A stretch of 64,000 nucleotides of DNA from Gammaproteobacteria bacterium (GTDB lineage: Bacteria; Pseudomonadota; Gammaproteobacteria; JASBUN01): NCBI GenBank assembly GCA_037385045.1, contig JARRNJ010000017.1, positions 1,797 through 65,796 on the forward strand. The letters run 5' to 3'. Shown here piece after piece: positions 3,427 to 26,595 of the stretch. A program made the translations under genes and the position numbers. The notes beneath the pieces are model-generated. The model was not told the origin of the DNA. It did no database searches and saw nothing but the letters and a program-made list of their open reading frames with translations. Position 1 is the first letter of the stretch, and each line of letters begins with the position of its first letter.

Positions 3427-4680
3427 GTGCGGTCGAAACTCATGATCCCCGCCGAAACGCGAGCCCTGGCGCTTGCGCCGCTGGTCGCGACTACGGTGTT
3501 GGGCGTGCTGTTGTTTGCCGTTCACAGTCTGCTGCCATCCGGTTCAGAGGGTGGCCTGGTGATGTTTGTCGTCGCCGTCGTTCTGATCCCGGTTATCAGC
3601 TATTTCATCGGCCAGCGTCTGCTGGCCCGAATCCTCGGGTCCAACCTCGGCGCGATTGCGGCCTACGCCAAGTCAGCGGTGGCCGGCGAGCGTCACGACG
3701 CACCCGAGGTGAGCAGTGCTGGATCCATCGCCGGTTCGCTCGCGTCCCTGGCGGCCCAGGTCGAAAAAATGTCGACCAGCATCAAGGCGCACGTTGAAAG
3801 GATCAACTCCGAGGTCGAACAGCTTTCCGCCGGCAGCAACGAGATCCTGTTCACCACGCAGATGCAGGCGGCGGCCGCGAACGAAACGAAGCAGGTGATG
3901 AACGACATGTCGGAGCGTATCCAGGCCGTTTCCAGCCTGGCGCGTGACACCGAAGCGATCTCGAACAAAGCCACCAGTCTGTCCGCCGATGGCGAATCCG
4001 TGGTGCAGGATGCCGTCCGCGTCATGGAGCAGATATCCAGCGCCATGACGCTGGCCGCCGAGCAAATCAACGCCCTGACCAATCATGCGCACGATATCGA
4101 CAAGGTCGCTATCGTCATCCGCGACATCGCCGACCAGACCAACCTGCTGGCATTGAATGCCGCCATCGAAGCGGCGCGCGCGGGCGAGCAGGGGCGCGGC
4201 TTCGCCGTGGTAGCGGACGAGGTGAAGAAGCTGGCCGTGCGCACCGCGCAATCGACACAGGAAATCACCAGCACTATCCAGGTTATGCAGAATCAGACCA
4301 TGGAGGCGGTGGATGGCATTGGCCACGCGATGCCCTTGATGCAGCAGGGCGTGGAGAAGGCAGGCCGTGCCTCAGAGGTATTGAGAGACATTCGCCAGGA
4401 GTCTCAGAACACGCTGGACAAGATCAGCCAGCTGGCCGGCGAAATGGATGAGCAGTCGCAGATGGTGTCCAACGTCGTGGACAGCGTGGGCCAGATTCTG
4501 GATATGTCGTCGAGCACCGACAAGGTGGCCGAACGCACACTCCAGACTTCGGTCACCCTGTCGAACACCGCCATGGAGCTGCTGAACGATACACGGGTGG
4601 CGGAAGAGCAAACAGAAGACGAAAACGACACCGCAGACGGTACACCGGACGAACGGGCCGAGCCCGCGAAGACGAATTGA
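3427..4680 (+). CDS. methyl-accepting chemotaxis protein (TM hairpin, HAMP-like linker, no periplasmic sensor domain)
   Basis: Conserved MCP signalling tip [41 protein letters not shown] start 8 nt after a GAGGAG RBS. The two N-terminal TM helices are separated by only a few residues. Confidence 0.93.
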
Positions 4681-19685: not shown

Positions 19686-20633
19686 TCAGACGACGTAGTT
19701 CATGGTCTGTTGCGTGGATCTGTCCGTGGTCCATTCGGCTGCCATCGCCGCGAACGCCTGGCAGGCGGGGCTCTTGTAGGCGGTCTTGCGGCAGATCAGG
19801 CTCACCGCGTGGTGCGGCAGGTTCGGCAGCAAGGCAATCGAGCGCAGACCGTGCTGCGTGCGGGCAATGGTGCTCGGCAGTATAGTGGCGAGGCGCCCGA
19901 GGCGAACAATTTCGACAATCACGCTGAGTGAGGTGGCGTCAATCGCAACTGTGGGCTTGATGTCATGGTCGAGGCAATAAAGATCGATGTGGCGCCGCAG
20001 TGCGTAGTCGGTGTTGAACAGCACCAACGGTTCCTCCTCCAAGGCGTGTTTGTTCAACGGACCCTGGTGGTCGGCGAGTGGATGCTCGGCGCCGACGGTA
20101 AAGCTGAGCGGTTCAATGAACAGGATTTCGCTTTCCACTTCTTCGGAACTGCTCTCCGTTGAGACCGTGCTGCTGAAGGCGATGCCCAGATCGATTCGGT
20201 CCTCAACCAGTGCGCTCCTGATGCCGTCCTGGGGCATTTCCAACGTTGTCACGGTAATACCGGGATACCGCGAGTTGAATCTGTCCAGCAAAGACATCGT
20301 CAGATAGTCGGTGATCGGTGTCATCGCAAGCCGGATGGAACCGCGGCTCAGGTCGTTGAGTTCGTGCACGGCGCGTTTTGCGGCATCCAATTCGCCCAGG
20401 GCGCGACGCGCGTGGTACAGGTAGACCTCACCCGCTGCCGTCAGTCGCACCGTGCGTCCGGACCGGTCGAGCAACTGTACGTCCAGCAGCTCTTCCAATT
20501 GTTTTATTTGCTGCGAGAGCGTTGGCTGAGATACGTAAAGCGCTTCCGCTGCGCGCGTAAAGCTATGGCGTTCCGCGACCGCAAGCAAGTAACGGATCGA
20601 GCGGGGGAAGAGCGCTTTCGGTTCCATAGACAA
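19686..20633 (-). CDS. LysR-family transcriptional regulator (CynR-like by position)
   Basis: wHTH motif FTRAAEALYVSQPTLSQQIKQLE. Divergent from cynS. Confidence 0.92.
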   Translation of the reverse strand: MSMEPKALFPRSIRYLLAVAERHSFTRAAEALYVSQPTLSQQIKQLEELLDVQLLDRSGRTVRLTAAGEVYLYHARRALGELDAAKRAVHELNDLSRGSIRLAMTPITDYLTMSLLDRFNSRYPGITVTTLEMPQDGIRSALVEDRIDLGIAFSSTVSTESSSEEVESEILFIEPLSFTVGAEHPLADHQGPLNKHALEEEPLVLFNTDYALRRHIDLYCLDHDIKPTVAIDATSLSVIVEIVRLGRLATILPSTIARTQHGLRSIALLPNLPHHAVSLICRKTAYKSPACQAFAAMAAEWTTDRSTQQTMNYVV

Positions 20634-20800
20634 CTCCTATAGCGCGCATCGGTAATTAGTCTTGGAAAACGATATTTGCATAGTCCATAGTCGTCCGCAA
20701 TAGAAACTCATGACGGTATTGGCAAACGTAAATACATAGTCCCGGCCAGAACGAGAACAACAGAAATCAAGTATGTATGAATATTCGAATTTACTTCGAG
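20634..20800. promoter_or_regulatory. AT-rich divergent promoter/operator region between the LysR gene and the cynS leader
   Basis: Clear GC drop with TTGCAT and TATGAATATT-type hexamers. No site could be assigned with confidence. Confidence 0.4.
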
Positions 20801-21032
20801 CGGTGACCAGCTCGGGCTGGTGGCGCGCTGTTGCCGCACGCAAGGGTGCGGGACGGCGTGTGGCACCGCGCGTTGCGCCGTCCCGGATCTTCATTGCGGT
20901 GACCGCGCTGCTGACTTGCGGGTTTGCCCGTGGCGCGGGGGAACGGCTGCGACGCGTCCAGGGCAGGAGAGTATTTCGTGCGCGCTTCTGTCTACCGACG
21001 GCCTTGTCGGTGACGGGGCTTTCTCCGAGTGT
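20800..21032 (+). promoter_or_regulatory. GC-rich structured leader (candidate cis-regulatory RNA or sRNA) upstream of cynS
   Basis: Consecutive perfect stems: accagc/gctggt (20806-20821), ccgcac/gtgcgg (20834-20851) and gggacggcg/cgccgtccc (20850-20884). Followed by the terminator at 21033. The overlapping ORF has poor third-position GC. Confidence 0.35.
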
Positions 21033-21084
21033 GAGCCGGAGGCTTCTCTGTTGCTGAGAGAAGCCCACCCGGCTCTCTTTTTTT
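21033..21084 (+). terminator. intrinsic terminator (long hairpin plus U-tract) 80 nt upstream of the cynS start
   Basis: GAGCCGG-A-GGCTTCTCT gttgctg AGAGAAGCC-CA-CCGGCTC, followed by TCTTTTTTTC. Read directly. Confidence 0.75.
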
Positions 21085-21163
21085 CGGGTCCTGCGGGCTG
21101 TAGAGCGGACCTGAACGCACACGGTCGTATTTTGACTTGATCAACACGCAAGGAGCGTGCCCG

Positions 21164-21604
21164 ATGAATAAAGCGGACATGAAAGAAGCCATTCTTCAGG
21201 CCAAATCTGAAAAGAATCTGAGCTGGGAGGCGCTGGCGGAAGTTGCGGGTGTGGCGCCGGAATACCTGTGTTCGGCTTGTTTTGGAATGAATCATCTTGA
21301 GCAGCGGCACGCCGATGCGCTCGCCAAAGTGTTGGGCCTGGGCGGTGAAGTAGCGACTGCGCTGCAGCAATTTCCGCATAAGACGTGGAGCCAGACGGTT
21401 CCAACCGACCCTGTGATTTACCGTTTGTACGAAATCATGGGCGTCTATGGCGAGACCATCAAGGCGCTGATTCATGAGAAGTTCGGCGACGGCATCATGA
21501 GCGCCATTGATTTCAGCATGGCCGTCGCCAAGCAGGAAGACCCGAAGGGCGATCGGGTCGTGGTAACCATGAGCGGCAAGTTCCTGCCCTACAGGTCGTG
21601 GTAG
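21164..21604 (+). CDS. cynS: cyanate hydratase (cyanase)
   Basis: 146 aa. N-terminal HTH-like half (KEAILQAKSEKNLSWEALAE) and C-terminal cyanase signature ...GDGIMSAIDFSM...VVVTMSGKFLPY. AAGGAG RBS. Confidence 0.95.
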   Translation: MNKADMKEAILQAKSEKNLSWEALAEVAGVAPEYLCSACFGMNHLEQRHADALAKVLGLGGEVATALQQFPHKTWSQTVPTDPVIYRLYEIMGVYGETIKALIHEKFGDGIMSAIDFSMAVAKQEDPKGDRVVVTMSGKFLPYRSW

Positions 21605-21784
21605 CGCGATTGATGCGCGGCGCGGTTGGGCCCATCGCAGGCTTGGGGCGGGTTTGGCGGTGAGAGCAACGCGATGTCGATCGACCTGTCTTTTCATGCG
21701 TCAACCAACTGCGACGGATGGTCAGTCGGCTCGTCGACCGCGAAGCCCAAACCCTATTTTCAAACGTGACATGTAAGGTGAAGC

Positions 21785-22606
21785 ATGGTGGCTTCGGATC
21801 CTCATCGTTTCGTTAATCAACTTGACCAGGCGGCCCTGGAAGGGTTGATAGGCCGGCTGGAGGGCCGTGCCCAGGATGCCGTGTTTGCGAGGCTGTTGGA
21901 ACGATATGCGGGTCAGTTGCCATTGGACCGCTCGGCGCAGGTGCTGGAGGTTGGCTGCGGAACCGGCGCGACCCTGCGCGCCCTGGCGCGCCGGAATGAC
22001 TTCGTCGGCAAGGCGGTGGGGGTGGACCAGTGTCTTCCGTTCATAAACGCAGCCAACGCGTTTGCGCAAGCCGAGAATATCGACGACCGGATTACTTTCC
22101 TTGTCGGTGATGCCCACAACCTGGATTTTCCCGGCGGGAGTTTCGACGTGGTCATCGCCCATACCGTGATCAGTCATGTCACCGACCCGATGACGATGCT
22201 GAGCGAAATGGCGCGGGTCGTGCGGCCCGGCGGCACCGTTGTTATCCTGGATGGCGACTATGCTTCGTTGACCTACGCCTTTCCCGACCACAGCTTTGGT
22301 CACCAAATGGACGCCGCCCTCGCGACCGCCAGCTTCAACAATCCGCGAATTATGCGCGACCTGCCCCGGCTGTTGCCACAGTTTGGGCTGCGTCCCGAGC
22401 AAGCGTGGGGCGACGCCGTTGTGGAGATTGGTGCGAGCAGCTATTTCAAGTCATTTGCTGAAACCTACGCCCCATACGTTAAGAGAGCGGGCCTCCTGCC
22501 GGCGCAGGCGGTCGACGTTTGGCTGAAAGAACAGCTGCAGGCCATGGAGGACGGGACGTTTTTCGCCGCGTGTAACTACTATACGTACCTGTCATGTCCG
22601 CGCTAA
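21785..22606 (+). CDS. class I SAM-dependent methyltransferase
   Basis: Motif I VLEVGCGTGA, plus an acidic-loop/post-I pattern and FDVVIAHTVISHV. Confidence 0.88.
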   Translation: MVASDPHRFVNQLDQAALEGLIGRLEGRAQDAVFARLLERYAGQLPLDRSAQVLEVGCGTGATLRALARRNDFVGKAVGVDQCLPFINAANAFAQAENIDDRITFLVGDAHNLDFPGGSFDVVIAHTVISHVTDPMTMLSEMARVVRPGGTVVILDGDYASLTYAFPDHSFGHQMDAALATASFNNPRIMRDLPRLLPQFGLRPEQAWGDAVVEIGASSYFKSFAETYAPYVKRAGLLPAQAVDVWLKEQLQAMEDGTFFAACNYYTYLSCPR

Positions 22607-22740
22607 GGCGTTTCGGCGCATCCGGCGGCGCAGACGCTGACGGGTGCCGGACCCGTTTGCGTGACGCCGTGAGCGATAATCGCCGCCTATGGCGGCCATT
22701 GGAATTACATCTTGGATAATCAGGGGAATTTTGCCTAGAT

Positions 22741-23026
22741 TGGTGACACGTCCCACGTGCGGTTTCCCTGGTCCCGATCCTGCGGCATGGGCGTTCAAAC
22801 AACAAGGCCGCCGGCGACACCGCAGTGGGGCAGCACCGAGCGTGACACAGCGCCCGGACTGGCCAGAGCCGGTGGCGCTGAAGTGCAAATTGCCGCGGCC
22901 CGGCTCCAAACATAGTTCGGTACTTCGCGCAACGGCTGCACGGTGATCGGAGCCCGTATCGTGGTCGCCCAGCGGTACGCCGCACCTATCGGGCTTGTGA
23001 ACGCAATTGATGAGGTACAGATTGCG
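22741..23026 (+). pseudogene. scnB: frame-broken remnant of thiocyanate hydrolase beta subunit (scnB-like)
   Basis: Pieces in two frames resemble my recollection of T. thioparus ScnB. AAWAFKQQGRRRHR matches LAWRGVWTAEERRRKQN; GARIVVAQRYAAPIGLVNAIDEV matches AARILVDKQFVTLTELHNKIVEM. A TAG at 22913 separates them, and the total length is far short of about 157 aa. Confidence 0.4.
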
Positions 23027-23395
23027 ATGACTAACCATCAAGACGATGTCATACAAGACGCAAAAATGGCGATGAACACGGGTCGTGTGAACCACCCGCA
23101 CGGGCAGATCGGCGAGGCGAGGTTCAAGCAGGGTGATCACGTCCGAATCAGGGATTTGCGCGATGTCTTCCATTCGCGGGCGTTGGCCTACAAACCAGGC
23201 ACCGTCGGTACGGTGGCGGATGTGAAGCGAGAATCCGCCGCGGGAGCCGCCGCGGCGGCGCGGGGCGACGCACAAGTGGAGTGGTACTACAGCGTGATAT
23301 TCAAACAAAGGGATCTTTGGCCAGATGATGGCGACACGGGCAGGGATGACACCCTGGAGACCGAGCTTCCAGAGCGCTATCTCGAAGAGATGTAA
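23027..23395 (+). CDS. scnA: thiocyanate hydrolase alpha subunit-like (nitrile hydratase beta C-terminal-domain homologue)
   Basis: 122 aa from MTNHQDD. FKQGDHVRIRDL...VEWYYSVIFKQRDLWPDD...DTLETELPERYLEEM closely parallels remembered ScnA (...VEWFYSIVFAQKDLWPEY...DTLETEIPERYLE). Confidence 0.8.
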   Translation: MTNHQDDVIQDAKMAMNTGRVNHPHGQIGEARFKQGDHVRIRDLRDVFHSRALAYKPGTVGTVADVKRESAAGAAAAARGDAQVEWYYSVIFKQRDLWPDDGDTGRDDTLETELPERYLEEM

Positions 23396-23435
23396 TGCCG
23401 CTGACCGGCGTCGTGGCACGCGAGAGGAAATCGCG

Positions 23436-23786
23436 ATGTCAGAAAACCGGCATGAGCGGGCGCCGATGGTGGGTGAGGTCAGTGACCTTGAAGTTCGGGA
23501 GATGGCGGTGCGCTTTGTGGCGAAGGCCAGGCTGGATCCGGAGTTCGGTTTGCAGCTCCCTGCGGAGGTGGGGATACGGGTTGCGGACTCCAACCAGAAG
23601 ACCCGCTACATGGCGACGCCGGTGCGTCCCGAAGGTACGGAAGAGTAGACCGAGGACCAACTGGCGGTAATCGCAACCGGCGGCTGCCTGATCGGGGTCG
23701 CGGTGCCCAAGCCCGGTGTTACGTCCAACACCCGGCGGCCGGTGCGTAAAGCGATTCCTCCGGTGCAGCACGGCCACGGTCATTGA
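23436..23786 (+). pseudogene. scnC: thiocyanate hydrolase gamma (catalytic, NHase-alpha-like) subunit, internally deleted with an in-frame TAG
   Basis: The N-terminus APMVGEVSDLEVREMAVR joins directly to FVAKARLDPE, then to FGLQLPAEVGIRVADSNQKTRYMATPVRPEGTEE. A TAG follows at 23646-23648. The same frame then continues TEDQLAVIATGGCLIGVAVPKPGV... to a TGA at 23784-23786. There is no C(T/S)LCSC metal claw anywhere. Confidence 0.75.
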
Positions 23787-23812
23787 GCATGTCAGCTTGC
23801 GAGGAGTAAGCC

Positions 23813-24238
23813 ATGAGCAAATCGAAGATACTGGACAACAACGTCGACGACGATTGGCAGCCGGCGGACGTGAGGCCGATTGGCGTGCTTGAGGATGTAC
23901 GCACTCGCGGACGGACGTGGGAGGAGTTGGCTACGCAGTACGGCGTCACCAATCCCGATCCGCCGTGGCGTATCACATTGGATGCGACCTGCGATATGCT
24001 TGCGGCGGATTCGTGCGTCAAGCCCCATGAGGAGCGCGACGCGCAGGCGTGCGTTGTGCCGGTGCTCGAACGGCGGGCGGAGGAGGATGACCTGTCCGAG
24101 ACGATCTACGCCGACGTTCCTTTCCCGGAGCGGACGCTGCTGGCGCTGGCCCACTCTATGATTCGGCGCGGCCTGTTCGACGAGGAAGAACTGGCCCGCC
24201 GTATGGAAGACGTCAGCCACCGCTTGAACAGCGTCTGA
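23813..24238 (+). CDS. NHase-beta N-terminal-domain-like protein, probable SCNase/NHase activator (P15K/P14K-type)
   Basis: 141 aa. ADVPFPERTLLALAHSMIRRGLFDEEELARRMEDV parallels the WE..FA....L.WRG.W..EE.RR segment of ScnB/NHase beta. Size and position downstream of scnC fit an activator. Confidence 0.6.
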   Translation: MSKSKILDNNVDDDWQPADVRPIGVLEDVRTRGRTWEELATQYGVTNPDPPWRITLDATCDMLAADSCVKPHEERDAQACVVPVLERRAEEDDLSETIYADVPFPERTLLALAHSMIRRGLFDEEELARRMEDVSHRLNSV

Positions 24239-24633
24239 CAGGGGCGCGGCCCGCCCGGTACGGCATGCTGAACCGCCAGGGAAGGCGCGCGGCTACCCCC
24301 CGGCCGAGGTAGCGTAGATCCGAAATTGGTGCGCCGGCACGATACGCCAGCGCATTCCGACGCGCCTGCGGATTACCGGAATTTCCTCCCCGCCTGGCGA
24401 ACGAAGGTTCGCGGACCGGCCGTTCCGCCCGCCGGTGCGGTACGCCGCAACGGGGTCCAGTGCGCGCGGCTGCCTGTTTTGCAGCGCGTCTCGGCTCAAT
24501 CCCTCCGTCGGTTTCCGCCTGGCGCTGCGGCGCCAACGACTGTCGCGGTATTTACGTGCGTACGGTCCGGGCTCCAGGGGGGGCGGTGCCGCGGCGGACG
24601 TTGTCCCAGGCGGCCAGCCGATAGATGCAACAG

Positions 24634-25236
24634 TCAGGGCCGCCGATCCCGTCCGGCCGACGTGTCATTTGTCAGCCCGGCGCGGCCGAAGATCGAACCG
24701 AACACGTTGCTGCCGGTCAGCTGGTGTAACAACGCAAATCCGACATGACCAGCCCAGTAAACCCAAAGTGCGTCGGCGAAGAATTTGTGCGCCAGTACGT
24801 AGCGGGTGAAGGCAGCCGGGTCCTGTGGCGGCGCCGGCGGGCCCGAGGGAATCATGGCGTGGATGACCACGCCGGTGACGGCGCAGCCGCTGACGGCCAG
24901 GATGCCCAGGCCGTGCACGAAGCTCGACAATCCGGCCCGCCGCCCGGGGGGCGGCAGCCGGCGGCGCCACAGTCCAAGCACCTCGCTGGCGATTGCGCGA
25001 AAAGCGGCGCGATTCCAGGGAAACAGCAGTGCCAGGTCGTAGGCCGCGTAACTGTATAACCAGAACAGCAGCAGTACCAAACCAGTCACCAGGCCGATGT
25101 AGCGGTGGGGCGGGAAAAGAAACTGGGTACCCGGGTCGGACATGAACAGACCGGTGGCCTGCTGAAAGGTGATGGTCAGCACAATAGCCCAGTGCAGCAG
25201 CCGGCTCGCGGCGCTCCAGGTGGTTGTTTCCGTCAC
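24634..25236 (-). CDS. cytochrome b561-family membrane protein
   Basis: GTG start 5 nt after an AAGGAG RBS. SRLLHWAIVLTITFQQATG, 4 TM helices, conserved His pairs (HW.., HRY.., HGLG.., HVGFALLH). Confidence 0.8.
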   Translation of the reverse strand: MTETTTWSAASRLLHWAIVLTITFQQATGLFMSDPGTQFLFPPHRYIGLVTGLVLLLFWLYSYAAYDLALLFPWNRAAFRAIASEVLGLWRRRLPPPGRRAGLSSFVHGLGILAVSGCAVTGVVIHAMIPSGPPAPPQDPAAFTRYVLAHKFFADALWVYWAGHVGFALLHQLTGSNVFGSIFGRAGLTNDTSAGRDRRP

Positions 25237-25464
25237 GACGACTCCTTTGCGGGTGCCTGCAACAGGCGCTTGGGTAGCGCCCAAAGACCCTAATCCGGAA
25301 ACCTGCGCGGTCCAGTATCCACGGGCGCTGGGGAGCCAGCGATGACATCGATCAAATCTCCGGGTCGAAACCACCTGCTCGGCCGTTGGCACGGGGGCGC
25401 CCCGGTGCCCGCCGAGATGGTTTAGAATGGCGTCTCCGTGCAGTGAATCGGAGATTGGTTTCCC

Positions 25465-26595
25465 ATGTCCAGACGCATCACCGTAGTCGGCGCCGGCTTT
25501 GCCGCCCTTACCGCCGTGCGCACCCTGCGCGCCGGCAACCGGAACGTAGAGATCACCGTCGTCGCACCCAAGGCGGAATTGGTCTATCTCCCGAGCCTGA
25601 TCTGGATTCCGTCCGGGTTGCGGCAACCCGAAGAGCTGCGGATTCCTCTCGAGGCGTTCTTCCGGCGCACAAAGGTGCAATTCCACGCGGGTGAGGCCAC
25701 CGGCCTGTCCGGCGACAGCCGGACGCTGTTCACTACTGCGGGCGAGTTGGTCAACGACGGTCTGGTAATCGCCTCCGGCGGACGCTTCATCAAGAAGCTA
25801 CCCGGCATCGAGCACGCGATCACTCCGTGCGAAGGCATCGATGCGGCGGTGGCCATTCGCGACCGGCTGCAGGCCATGGAAGGCGGCACCATTGCCGTGG
25901 GCTTCGGCACCAACCCTAATGAGCCGGCAGCCATGCGCGGCGGCCCGATGTTCGAGTTCCTGTTCGGCATCGATACCCTCCTGCGCCGACAGCGCCGGCG
26001 CGAACGCTTCAAGCTGGTGTTCTTCAACGCGGCTGCGGAGCCGGGCAAACGCCTCGGCGAAAAGGCGGTGAAGGGGCTGCTGGGTGCCATGGCCGCCCGC
26101 GGCATCGAGACTCACCTGGGCCACAAGATCAGTGGTTTTGCGCCGGGCACGGTTATCACCGAGGGCGGCGAGATACCCGCCGAGTTGATCCTGTTCATGC
26201 CGGGGTTGACGGGCAACGCCTGGTTTGACAACACCAGCCTCGCCCGTTCCGAGGGCGGTATGCTCAAGGCCGATGCGATGTGCAGGGTGGGCGGAGCCGA
26301 GCGCGTCTATGTGGCGGGCGATTCCGGCAGCTTTCCCGGGCCCGGCTGGATGCCGAAGCAGGCGCACATGGCGGACCTGCAGGCCGAAGCGGCGGCGCGC
26401 AATCTGCTGGCCGAACTCGCCGGGCGCGAGCCCGAGCATACCTACAATGTCGAACTCATGTGTATCGTCGACAGTCTGGACAAGGGCATGCTGGTTACCC
26501 GGACCGAGCGCACGAACCGCATGATCCGTCCGCTGTCCGCATTGCACTGGACCAAGCGCGCCTTTGAGTGGAACTACCTGCGCAAGTACCGCTAG
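25465..26595 (+). CDS. FAD-dependent pyridine-nucleotide-disulfide oxidoreductase, sulfide:quinone oxidoreductase (SQR)-like
   Basis: Dinucleotide fold ITVVGAGFAALTA. SQR-like layout: LPSLIWIPSG, GGPMFEF, YVAGDSG, PKQAHMADLQA. Confidence 0.85.
   Translation: MSRRITVVGAGFAALTAVRTLRAGNRNVEITVVAPKAELVYLPSLIWIPSGLRQPEELRIPLEAFFRRTKVQFHAGEATGLSGDSRTLFTTAGELVNDGLVIASGGRFIKKLPGIEHAITPCEGIDAAVAIRDRLQAMEGGTIAVGFGTNPNEPAAMRGGPMFEFLFGIDTLLRRQRRRERFKLVFFNAAAEPGKRLGEKAVKGLLGAMAARGIETHLGHKISGFAPGTVITEGGEIPAELILFMPGLTGNAWFDNTSLARSEGGMLKADAMCRVGGAERVYVAGDSGSFPGPGWMPKQAHMADLQAEAAARNLLAELAGREPEHTYNVELMCIVDSLDKGMLVTRTERTNRMIRPLSALHWTKRAFEWNYLRKYR

Follow-up and report, generated by a model that had tools for sequence, protein, structure and literature searches.

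A probable relic of a Thiobacillus-type thiocyanate hydrolase cluster, with decaying catalytic genes and a conserved activator gene, in a gammaproteobacterium

Introduction

The thiocyanate hydrolase (SCNase) operon of Thiobacillus thioparus THI115/DSM 505 has the gene order scnB-scnA-scnC-P15K (Katayama 1998, Kataoka 2006 and Arakawa 2007, all as cited in PMC5458468). The papers on its genes and structure are by Katayama and colleagues (1998) and Arakawa and colleagues (2007), and Kataoka and colleagues (2006) published P15K as the activator of SCNase (the three papers being cited in PMC5458468 and PMC3511329). A ‘conserved operon’ has also been reported for Thiobacillus genomes from SCN- bioreactors (Kantor 2015, as cited in PMC5458468). 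Here we describe a locus of this kind in a 64-kb stretch of DNA (hereafter the window) from an uncultured gammaproteobacterium, labelled ‘Gammaproteobacteria bacterium’ by NCBI. The locus, at 22686-24238, is very probably a relic of a T. thioparus-type SCNase cluster in which the catalytic genes are decaying while the rest of the cluster is maintained.

In common with the T. thioparus operon, the window shows an identical arrangement and direction of the genes, cynS and methyltransferase genes upstream and a promoter-like motif about 200 nt before scnB. It differs in that scnB is reduced to around 24 codons, in that scnC lacks 120 codons and contains a stop, and in that the product of its scnA gene, which we call ScnA', is only 45% identical to T. 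thioparus ScnA and has lost 18 of 49 invariant residues. The second useful comparison is with the activators, or self-subunit-swapping chaperones, of Co-type nitrile hydratases (NHases), P14K, NhlE and NhhG (PMC3511329). Like them, P15K is a small protein of about 15 kDa encoded directly downstream of an alpha/gamma subunit gene, and, like theirs, its sequence is weakly similar to that of the beta subunit's N-terminal domain. However, while P14K, NhlE and NhhG act on the adjacent alpha subunit, the neighbour of P15K is here a pseudogene (and is absent in one sister lineage, B, see below), yet the activator is strictly conserved.

An initial annotation of this DNA had suggested a lineage that once used the hydrolase route for SCN- and is now losing it, and the synteny of the locus, the near-loss of scnB and the lesions in scnC all support that suggestion. 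Beyond it, the present analysis adds two observations: selection on P15K in the absence of its client, and an early remodelling of ScnA.

Gene order and orthology

The scn region of the window, 22686-24238, was studied by profile, blastn, tblastn and codon comparisons. It contains the following elements, preceded by a promoter-like element treated below.

22742-22943, plus strand: presumed 5' leader, ending at the scar of the scnB deletion (no coding signal)
22944-23020, plus strand: scnB pseudogene, the last ~24 codons, in frame with scnA (blastn, ScnB profile)
23027-23395, plus strand: scnA', an open reading frame (ORF) of 122 codons encoding an NHase beta C-terminal domain (PDB 2dd4_A, Pfam NHase_beta_C)
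23436-23786, plus strand: scnC pseudogene (PDB 2dd4_C, ScnC profile, NCBIfam, comparison with lineage C and T. thioparus)
23813-24238, plus strand: orthologue of P15K, the SCNase activator or NHase-type maturation chaperone (family profile, 73% identity to the DSM 505 protein)

For reference, a scan with one genome per species yielded 454 loci encoding ScnA relatives, 80 of which were fetched and serve as the canonical set. All 80 contain scnA and scnC, all but one contain scnB and all but four contain P15K, the incomplete loci mostly running into the end of a contig. The genes invariably follow one another as scnB, scnA, scnC, P15K and, in more than 20 of the 80, T. thioparus DSM 505 (locus L023) included, cynS and a gene for a 273-residue methyltransferase lie immediately upstream in the same orientation. 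In the window, cynR (19686-20633, minus strand), cynS (21164-21604) and the methyltransferase gene (21785-22606) are followed by the scn remnants and P15K, which gives gene-for-gene synteny with the cynS-methyltransferase-scnB-scnA-scnC-P15K cluster of DSM 505; the remnants stand in exactly the canonical order and orientation.

The region 22686-24238 is thus evidently the orthologue of the T. thioparus scn cluster with its catalytic part destroyed. Lacking ScnB and the metal claw, and with a truncated gamma subunit, the window locus cannot encode an SCNase. With neither a metal site nor ScnB, it is predicted not to hydrolyse SCN- to COS and NH3. No other NHase alpha subunit or ScnC was found within the 64-kb window, nor any further match to ScnB, and a search of 21500-24700 with Rfam gave nothing at E ≤ 1.

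Four lineages, A to D, carry the locus. Lineage A is that of the window, B comprises the loci L005, L006 and L094, C comprises L007, L008 and L009, and D is represented by L093. Lineages B, C and D are syntenic with the window, and the neighbouring genes are 84-95% identical at the protein level. A near-identical contig belongs to a metagenome-assembled genome (MAG) labelled ‘Acidihalobacter sp.’, whose partial scnA' and methyltransferase genes are placed in the same 90%-identity protein clusters as those of the window.

A search of a 5.8-billion-protein collection with P15K retrieved 615 homologues and no closer intact relative of the clade: the clade itself is found at 90% identity, followed by a gap, with the next proteins at 76% or below. 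The window ScnA used alone as query found no relative in a contig scan of representative genomes, and a metagenome scan with an alignment of the clade's ScnA', whose N-terminal patterns are poor, returned only the known lineage A contig and an unrelated 36% match.

Parallel decay of scnC

The scnC remnant can be read in one frame from an ATG at 23436 to a TGA at 23784-23786, passing through a TAG at 23646-23648. Its similarity to the gamma subunit ScnC (PDB 2dd4_C) is highly significant (E = 3.5e-40 overall) and comprises three co-linear stretches in that single frame: remnant residues 4-29, 24-36 and 33-114 correspond to ScnC residues 13-38, about 64-76 and 162-243. In agreement, only positions 2-23 and 149-228 are covered in a hidden Markov model (HMM) of 78 intact ScnC sequences. 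The best NCBIfam model for the remnant is thiocyanate hydrolase subunit gamma (TIGR03887), but with 85 bits against a cut-off of 291, and a full-length gamma subunit with the C-T-L-C-S-C claw is not present at the window locus.

The deletions were mapped by aligning the remnant with scnC of T. thioparus and with that of a sister lineage in which the central part of the gene is preserved. Deletion 1 has removed around 31 codons (codons ~35-65 in T. thioparus DSM 505), with its junction in GCGGTGCGC at 23505-23513; in the ancestral sequence the lost block is flanked by copies resembling GCGGTGCGC and GCGGCGCGC. Deletion 2 has removed around 89 codons (~77-165), among them those of the cobalt-binding CTLCSC claw, and its junction is GGAGTTC at 23540-23546, a heptamer present once in scnC of the window but twice, at a distance of 266 nt, in lineage C. 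Neither deletion disturbs the reading frame and each is bordered by short direct repeats, which would be the signature of slippage or of microhomology-mediated deletion. The TAG occupies the Trp codon of G-T-E-G-W-T-E-D, which is TGG in T. thioparus and in lineage C. The initial annotation had described an ORF beginning like ScnC, two missing blocks of some 30 and 85 residues that include the claw, a stop in place of Trp and a ScnC-like frame continuing beyond it to 23786; in each respect the comparison bears it out, with slightly larger blocks.

What survives remains recognizably ScnC, the C-terminal 79 residues of the remnant being 75% identical to the DSM 505 protein. Taking as invariant those columns conserved in at least 95% of the 78 intact proteins, lineage A keeps 52 of the 61 it covers and lineage C 93 of 109. 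Substitutions at invariant columns are shared neither between A and C nor among A, C and D together; lineage D has one change in common with A (R210G) and one with C (P190R), as well as a stop at Trp199. Over the roughly 81 surviving codons, A and C differ at 10, 11 and 17 sites at codon positions 1, 2 and 3, and the ratio of nonsynonymous to synonymous substitution rates (dN/dS) is 0.43, compared with 0.13 in intact operons (5-95% range 0.05-0.24). From the excess dN of the remnant we estimate that scnC has been neutral over roughly one quarter to one third of the divergence between A and C.

The sister lineages have each damaged the gene differently. In lineage B everything is lost from about 25 nt after the scnA stop to the last 18 codons of scnC. 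In lineage C the first ~57 codons are missing and there are three frameshifts, while CTLCSC and the TGG codon are retained. In lineage D a TGA, which arose independently, is found at the very Trp codon that is TAG in the window. A short form common to the relatives, which would have pointed to a new function rather than decay, is therefore not found. Since the lesions differ between lineages and A, C and D share no substitution at an invariant column, scnC was evidently canonical in the common ancestor and has been decaying independently in each lineage, with no sign of a conserved short ScnC.

The structure of the window locus is not peculiar to one assembly. P15K-coding contigs occur in four others of separate origin (an NCBI MAG contig, Logan SRR21285585, ENA ERZ27251509 and JGI 3300032133), which over 22500-24400 are 99.84-100% identical to the window without a single indel and show the same lesions. 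One is 100% identical and three have 2-3 mismatches over 1.7-1.9 kb, all differences lying at 22769, 22776 and 24363, outside genes.

The scnB remnant and the leader

Directly upstream of scnA, about 24 terminal codons of scnB are left and the remaining ~115 are gone. The stretch 22944-23016 aligns to the 3' end of intact scnB, best seen with L017 (73% over 73 nt, blastn E = 4e-5), with further blastn matches to the 3' ends of intact scnB in L070, L049 and L018. With an HMM of 78 ScnB sequences, 22949-23020 corresponds to profile positions 116-139 of 141, at an independent E-value (i-E) of 0.21; the homologous spot in lineage B scores 0.07-0.08. The three forward frames of 22600-23050 gave no match to ScnB when searched against the PDB with phmmer, and none to Pfam NHase_beta_N. 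Scattered scnB-like pieces in two frames separated by a stop, as initially annotated, thus shrink to one piece, the last ~24 codons; for the others nothing was found in the three frames.

In 22741-22943 there is no similarity to ScnB in any frame by PDB phmmer, Pfam or the ScnB HMM. From its position relative to the conserved motif and the scnB start, this stretch is presumed to be operon promoter and 5' leader rather than coding debris, and its length fits the ~200 nt that separate the motif from the scnB start in canonical loci. The boundaries of the scnB deletion are identical in lineages A and B, while window positions 22862-22980 are absent from lineage C.

P15K remains under selection

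The 141-residue product of P15K is 73% identical to that of the gene following scnC in T. thioparus DSM 505 and matches an HMM of 70 family proteins at E = 6e-64, so that the activator-like gene reported as intact downstream of scnC is indeed so. No PDB, Pfam or NCBIfam family is assigned to it, and T. thioparus P15K likewise has no NCBIfam match. Family-invariant residues are retained as expected of an orthologue: 33 of 34 invariant columns are kept in lineages A to D, against 31-34 in canonical proteins.

Codon comparisons reveal strong constraint. Within the clade, dN/dS of P15K is 0.05-0.11 (the median in intact operons is 0.21), differences at the three codon positions are 0.04, 0.05 and 0.25, total dN is 0.046, and the four lineages contain neither a stop nor a frameshift. 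Had P15K been neutral for as long as scnC, about 0.09-0.11 of extra dN and some 30-35 extra replacements would be expected by our own calculation. Because the replacements observed fall below that expectation, P15K is evidently still under strong selection though its sole known client subunit has been lost. To our knowledge, the maturation of a neighbouring metal-binding subunit is the only role of P15K-type activators, and the neighbour here, scnC, is a pseudogene and not a functional alpha/gamma subunit gene.

The C-terminal part of P15K resembles ScnB and the N-terminal domain of NHase beta subunits (tblastn 1.5e-5; Pfam E = 0.002; ScnB HMM i-E 6e-4). Such a resemblance is in line with the properties of self-subunit-swapping chaperones (PMC3511329).

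A remodelled ScnA

The intervening gene, scnA', presents a different picture. Along its whole length the protein matches the alpha subunit of T. thioparus SCNase (PDB 2dd4_A, E = 4e-29), the next-best PDB matches being nitrile hydratase beta subunits (E ~ 1e-6), and it matches Pfam NHase_beta_C at E = 4e-17. The initial view of an intact ORF paralleling ScnA holds for the reading frame and for homology, but the protein is highly atypical. Its identity to the 80 canonical ScnA proteins is at most 53% and on average 46%, where the minimum among canonical pairs is 57% and the value typical for loci with an equally similar P15K is 77%. Of 49 invariant columns, lineages A, B and C keep 31, 29 and 27, while canonical proteins keep 44-49.

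The lost positions are the same in A, B and C: His11/12, the GxGDPQCF motif, Tyr50, Arg58, Val68/Tyr69, Pro72, Glu75-Asp76-Glu77, Asn81 and Tyr102. Several replacements are even identical in all three (Y50H, D76A, E77A and N81D). Since the lost positions are common to the three lineages, the changes go back to the clade's stem, to a time when ScnC had not yet departed from its canonical form, and so predate the decay of scnC.

Within the clade, dN/dS of scnA' is 0.17-0.30, with 0.11-0.18 in the C-terminal 82 codons and 0.23-0.73 in the first 40. No stop interrupts the gene in A, B or C, the three lineages for which it can be read, and its indels are of 3 and 6 nt only; in a neutral simulation the chance of finding no stop in three lineages was 0.002-0.06. 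The pattern fits a changed constraint followed by continued selection, although a recent relaxation is possible. We consider scnA probably still selected.

Some Thiobacillus and other genomes contain a second, paralogous ScnB'-ScnA' pair (L025 685-1537, L016, L029, L052, L059 and L088), 51-62% identical to the main copies. In L025 the pair, which has no gamma/alpha subunit gene beside it, is situated upstream of the main operon at a distance of about 3.5 kb, and genes for a small Cys-rich protein and a thiamine diphosphate-dependent enzyme come after it; such pairs would be beta-only pairs of the NHase family. They were considered as a source of the clade's ScnA' and rejected, as they keep GDPQC, YTRG and EDEA, which ScnA' lacks.

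Recombination between lineages

The nearest relatives differ from gene to gene. The closest pair is B-C for CynS and the methyltransferase (by protein identity), A-B for scnA and, by synonymous divergence (dS), A-C for P15K. To the left of scnC, dS between A and C is ~0.85; to the right, it is ~0.43. These gene-to-gene differences in dS and the conflicting nearest neighbours point to recombination between the lineages, with a breakpoint in or near the scnC pseudogene.

The cyanate module and promoter-like elements

Upstream of the scn remnants lie the cyanate genes and two promoter-like elements.

19686-20633, minus strand: cynR, LysR-type regulator, divergent from cynS (NCBIfam NF008416)
20636-20691, plus strand: element P1, promoter/operator-like, beside cynR (read from the sequence)
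21164-21604, plus strand: cynS, cyanase, intact (NCBIfam TIGR00673 and NF002773, Pfam Cyanate_lyase)
21785-22606, plus strand: methyltransferase dependent on S-adenosylmethionine, a conserved member of the cluster (Pfam Methyltransf_11/25)
22686-22741, plus strand: element P2, promoter/operator-like, of the scn operon (conserved motif)

CynS exceeds the TIGR00673 cut-off (159.5 against 113.3 bits) and that of NF002773, placing cyanase upstream of the remnants as previously annotated, and CynR is an equivalog of NF008416 (376 against 277 bits). CynS is 68% identical to the T. thioparus protein, CynR 60% to that of the Thiobacillus locus L019 and the methyltransferase 70% to its T. thioparus counterpart, although the last passes no specific NCBIfam model. 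All three genes are under strong purifying selection (dN/dS 0.03-0.09; within the clade, 0.03-0.09 for cynS and 0.03-0.05 for the methyltransferase gene), which fits the earlier idea that cyanate handling has been kept. As in the cynR/cynTSX arrangement of Escherichia coli, a LysR-type CynR is encoded divergently from the cyanase gene, with both proteins passing their NCBIfam cut-offs; in contrast to it, neither cynT nor cynX is present in the fetched context, cynS being followed instead by the methyltransferase gene and the scn relic.

Element P2 has a -35-like TTGGAT at 22712-22717 and, after an 18-nt spacer, a -10-like TAGATT at 22736-22741. Its core motif, YGRAATT-N5-CTTGG, occurs once in the 64-kb window, at 22700. 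There are 35 occurrences in the canonical loci, all on the operon strand, and 22 of them lie 192-243 nt upstream of the scnB start. The general element reads CCTAT-N8-ATCGRAATT-N5-CTTGGAA, an 18-nt spacer, then CATAGT or TAGATT (for example L023 4243-4300 and L019 ~1256-1320). P2 is the best-conserved intergenic block when lineages A to C are compared with one another and with the canonical loci, standing above the intergenic background. Its make-up suggests a promoter of the -35/-10 type with an operator upstream, although a generic sigma-70 consensus scan found no site reaching threshold. A sigma-54 identity of the motif (-24/-12), tried by eye, was discarded: the spacing is off by one and the GC of the -12 element is missing.

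P1 is a near-copy of the P2 architecture, CCTAT-N8-ATCGGTAATT-N4-CTTGGAA followed by an 18-nt spacer and CATAGT. Because this near-copy adjoins cynR in the window and the motif also lies beside cynR in the Thiobacillus locus L019, the P1/P2 element is probably the CynR-controlled promoter type of the whole thiocyanate/cyanate cluster.

The canonical scnB leader, of ~170 nt, ends in a conserved inverted repeat, TTACG-GCAAGCCGACTTGTT-CGTAA, just upstream of an AGGAG ribosome-binding site. Located in the alignment of canonical loci at columns ~245-300 (for example L023 ~4440-4480), it could be a regulatory hairpin; in the window it is unrecognizable.

In 21 of the 80 canonical loci, the flanking DNA contains a gene for a CbiM-like cobalt transporter, which in L019 lies between cynR and cynS. 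The corresponding 530-nt cynR-cynS spacer of the window (20692-21163) has no significant CbiM-like remnant. Its absence is consistent with, though not proof of, a loss of cobalt supply alongside the cobalt enzyme.

Downstream of P15K, ABC-transporter genes are found in T. thioparus, while the window has instead genes for a cytochrome b561-family protein (24634-25239, minus strand) and an FAD-dependent oxidoreductase resembling sulfide:quinone reductases (25465-26595, plus strand; Pyr_redox_2, with a weak match to the type III enzymes). Both are conserved in lineage C.

How the locus may have arisen, and alternatives

We favour, with considerable confidence, the view that the window holds a relic of a T. 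thioparus-type SCNase cluster. Selection on the catalytic subunit was evidently lifted in the clade, as the different, independent lesions of the sister lineages indicate, and each lineage is eroding scnC in its own way. The remnant operon may still be transcribed from the CynR-type promoter and would yield a diverged ScnA' and a canonical P15K. The latter might serve another NHase-family alpha/gamma subunit encoded elsewhere, or have a role independent of SCNase.

Several points weigh against this view. A second intact scnBAC, or another NHase, in the genome would render the conservation of P15K ordinary. Selection on scnA' is less secure than that on P15K: if scnC died late, within no more than the final quarter or third of the A-C divergence, the dN of scnA would fit recent neutrality and the test of ORF intactness would weaken to p ~ 0.06-0.1 (our own calculation). 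The order of events is blurred by recombination and only partly recoverable. A single ancestral scnB deletion is not provable, since the gap in lineage C covers the junction, and the deletion is demonstrably common only to A and B. Finally, the function of the promoter and the transcription of the remnant operon are inferred from the DNA sequence.

The alternative that survives best, although we hold it to be tentative, is that scnA' and P15K have taken on a new function as a pair of proteins working without ScnB and ScnC, for example as a beta-like heterodimer that acts as a cobalt or maturation chaperone for another enzyme. In its favour, ScnA lost 18 invariant positions on the stem, whereas the ScnC remnants show no substitution common to A, C and D at ~50 jointly covered columns, and the domain core of scnA' has since had a dN/dS of 0.11-0.18. 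Moreover, scnA' and P15K survive wherever that part of the locus is available, which scnB and scnC do not, and with its ScnB-like C-terminal part P15K, together with ScnA', formally mimics a split NHase beta subunit. Set against this, the 40 N-terminal codons of scnA' are nearly neutral, only four lineages are known and these recombine, and a client encoded in trans would explain the conservation of P15K more simply. A fuller version, in which the remodelled ScnA' and ScnB-like P15K would be kept as a split beta-like pair with an SCNase-independent role under a cyanate-responsive CynR-type promoter, the burst of change in ScnA marking the switch, must be regarded as similarly speculative.

It is improbable that the whole scn remnant is dead, with the scnA and P15K ORFs simply not yet hit and their low dN/dS a memory of the working enzyme. 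The scnC lesions are lineage-specific and hence possibly recent, ScnA' has lost its 18 invariant residues, and the dN of scnA (0.11-0.18) is close to that of the scnC remnant (0.13). However, the low dN of P15K and its 33 of 34 invariant columns in four lineages are not what neutrality would leave, as calculated above; the indels of scnA are all multiples of three, it has no stop in three lineages and its dN/dS is within the range of functional ScnA; and the promoter block is conserved above the intergenic background.

Very little speaks for a short ScnC, of 70 residues to the TAG or 116 with readthrough, as a new functional protein under selection: the two deletions preserve the reading frame, the remnant possesses an ATG of its own and a ribosome-binding site of the GAGAGG type, and gene callers predict the 70-residue product, but the metal site is absent, the form is common to no relative (B having its own deletion, C other deletions and three frameshifts, D a TGA), the dN/dS is 0.43 and differences are nearly flat across codon positions. 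An artefact, in which a collapsed or misassembled scnC and a sequencing-error TAG mask an intact scnBAC, can be practically dismissed, although the window comes from a MAG and frameshifted scnC is frequent in public assemblies (L010, L011, L012), since four other assemblies have the same structure with no indel and 0-3 single-nucleotide differences, none inside scnA, scnC or P15K, and functional scnB and scnC are missing, through other lesions, from the diverged sister lineages as well.

Damaged scnC genes in other genomes

Two kinds of scnC lesion were seen elsewhere. In a Methylotetracoccus sp. MAG (JALORT010000376.1; L021 2934-3479, protein P0004), scnC has an in-frame deletion of 45-46 codons that removes the CTLCSC claw, with the join …CIEDGVEAS/NPILGQSPEWY…, in a cynS-methyltransferase-scnB-scnA-scnC-P15K cluster that is otherwise intact. 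This is either a second, independent natural loss of the claw or an assembly error on a 3.9-kb contig.

Many public assemblies also have ORFs of ~80 residues starting near VLAEFGLQLP, which are the C-terminus of scnC severed by a +1 frameshift lying between the claw and this start (among others, L010/L011 5500-6243, L012 5544-6243, P0006, P0035, P0038, P0039 and P0047). The position of the frameshift differs between L010 and L012 but is identical in two separate runs, L010 and L011. These frameshifts may reflect sequencing error or recurrent pseudogenization.

Implications

Genome surveys take matches to ‘scnA’ or ‘nitrile hydratase beta’ as evidence of thiocyanate degradation, and the NCBI annotation of scnA' is indeed ‘nitrile hydratase subunit beta’. 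The present locus indicates that scnA matches can sit in a locus incapable of encoding the enzyme, so that the presence of the ScnC claw and of ScnB needs to be checked.

The pseudogenization of an operon is an ordinary event. The added interest here lies in the parallel erosion, the orphaned but conserved activator and the early remodelling of ScnA. Four lineages have damaged one catalytic gene in different ways (by microhomology deletions, by frameshifts and by two types of nonsense mutation at a single Trp codon), which makes the locus a clean case, provided by nature, of a gene decaying in parallel while the cluster around it is maintained. An activator that remains tightly selected without its neighbour suggests, in turn, either that it acts in trans on a different enzyme of the NHase family or that it has a second function, so far unrecognized.

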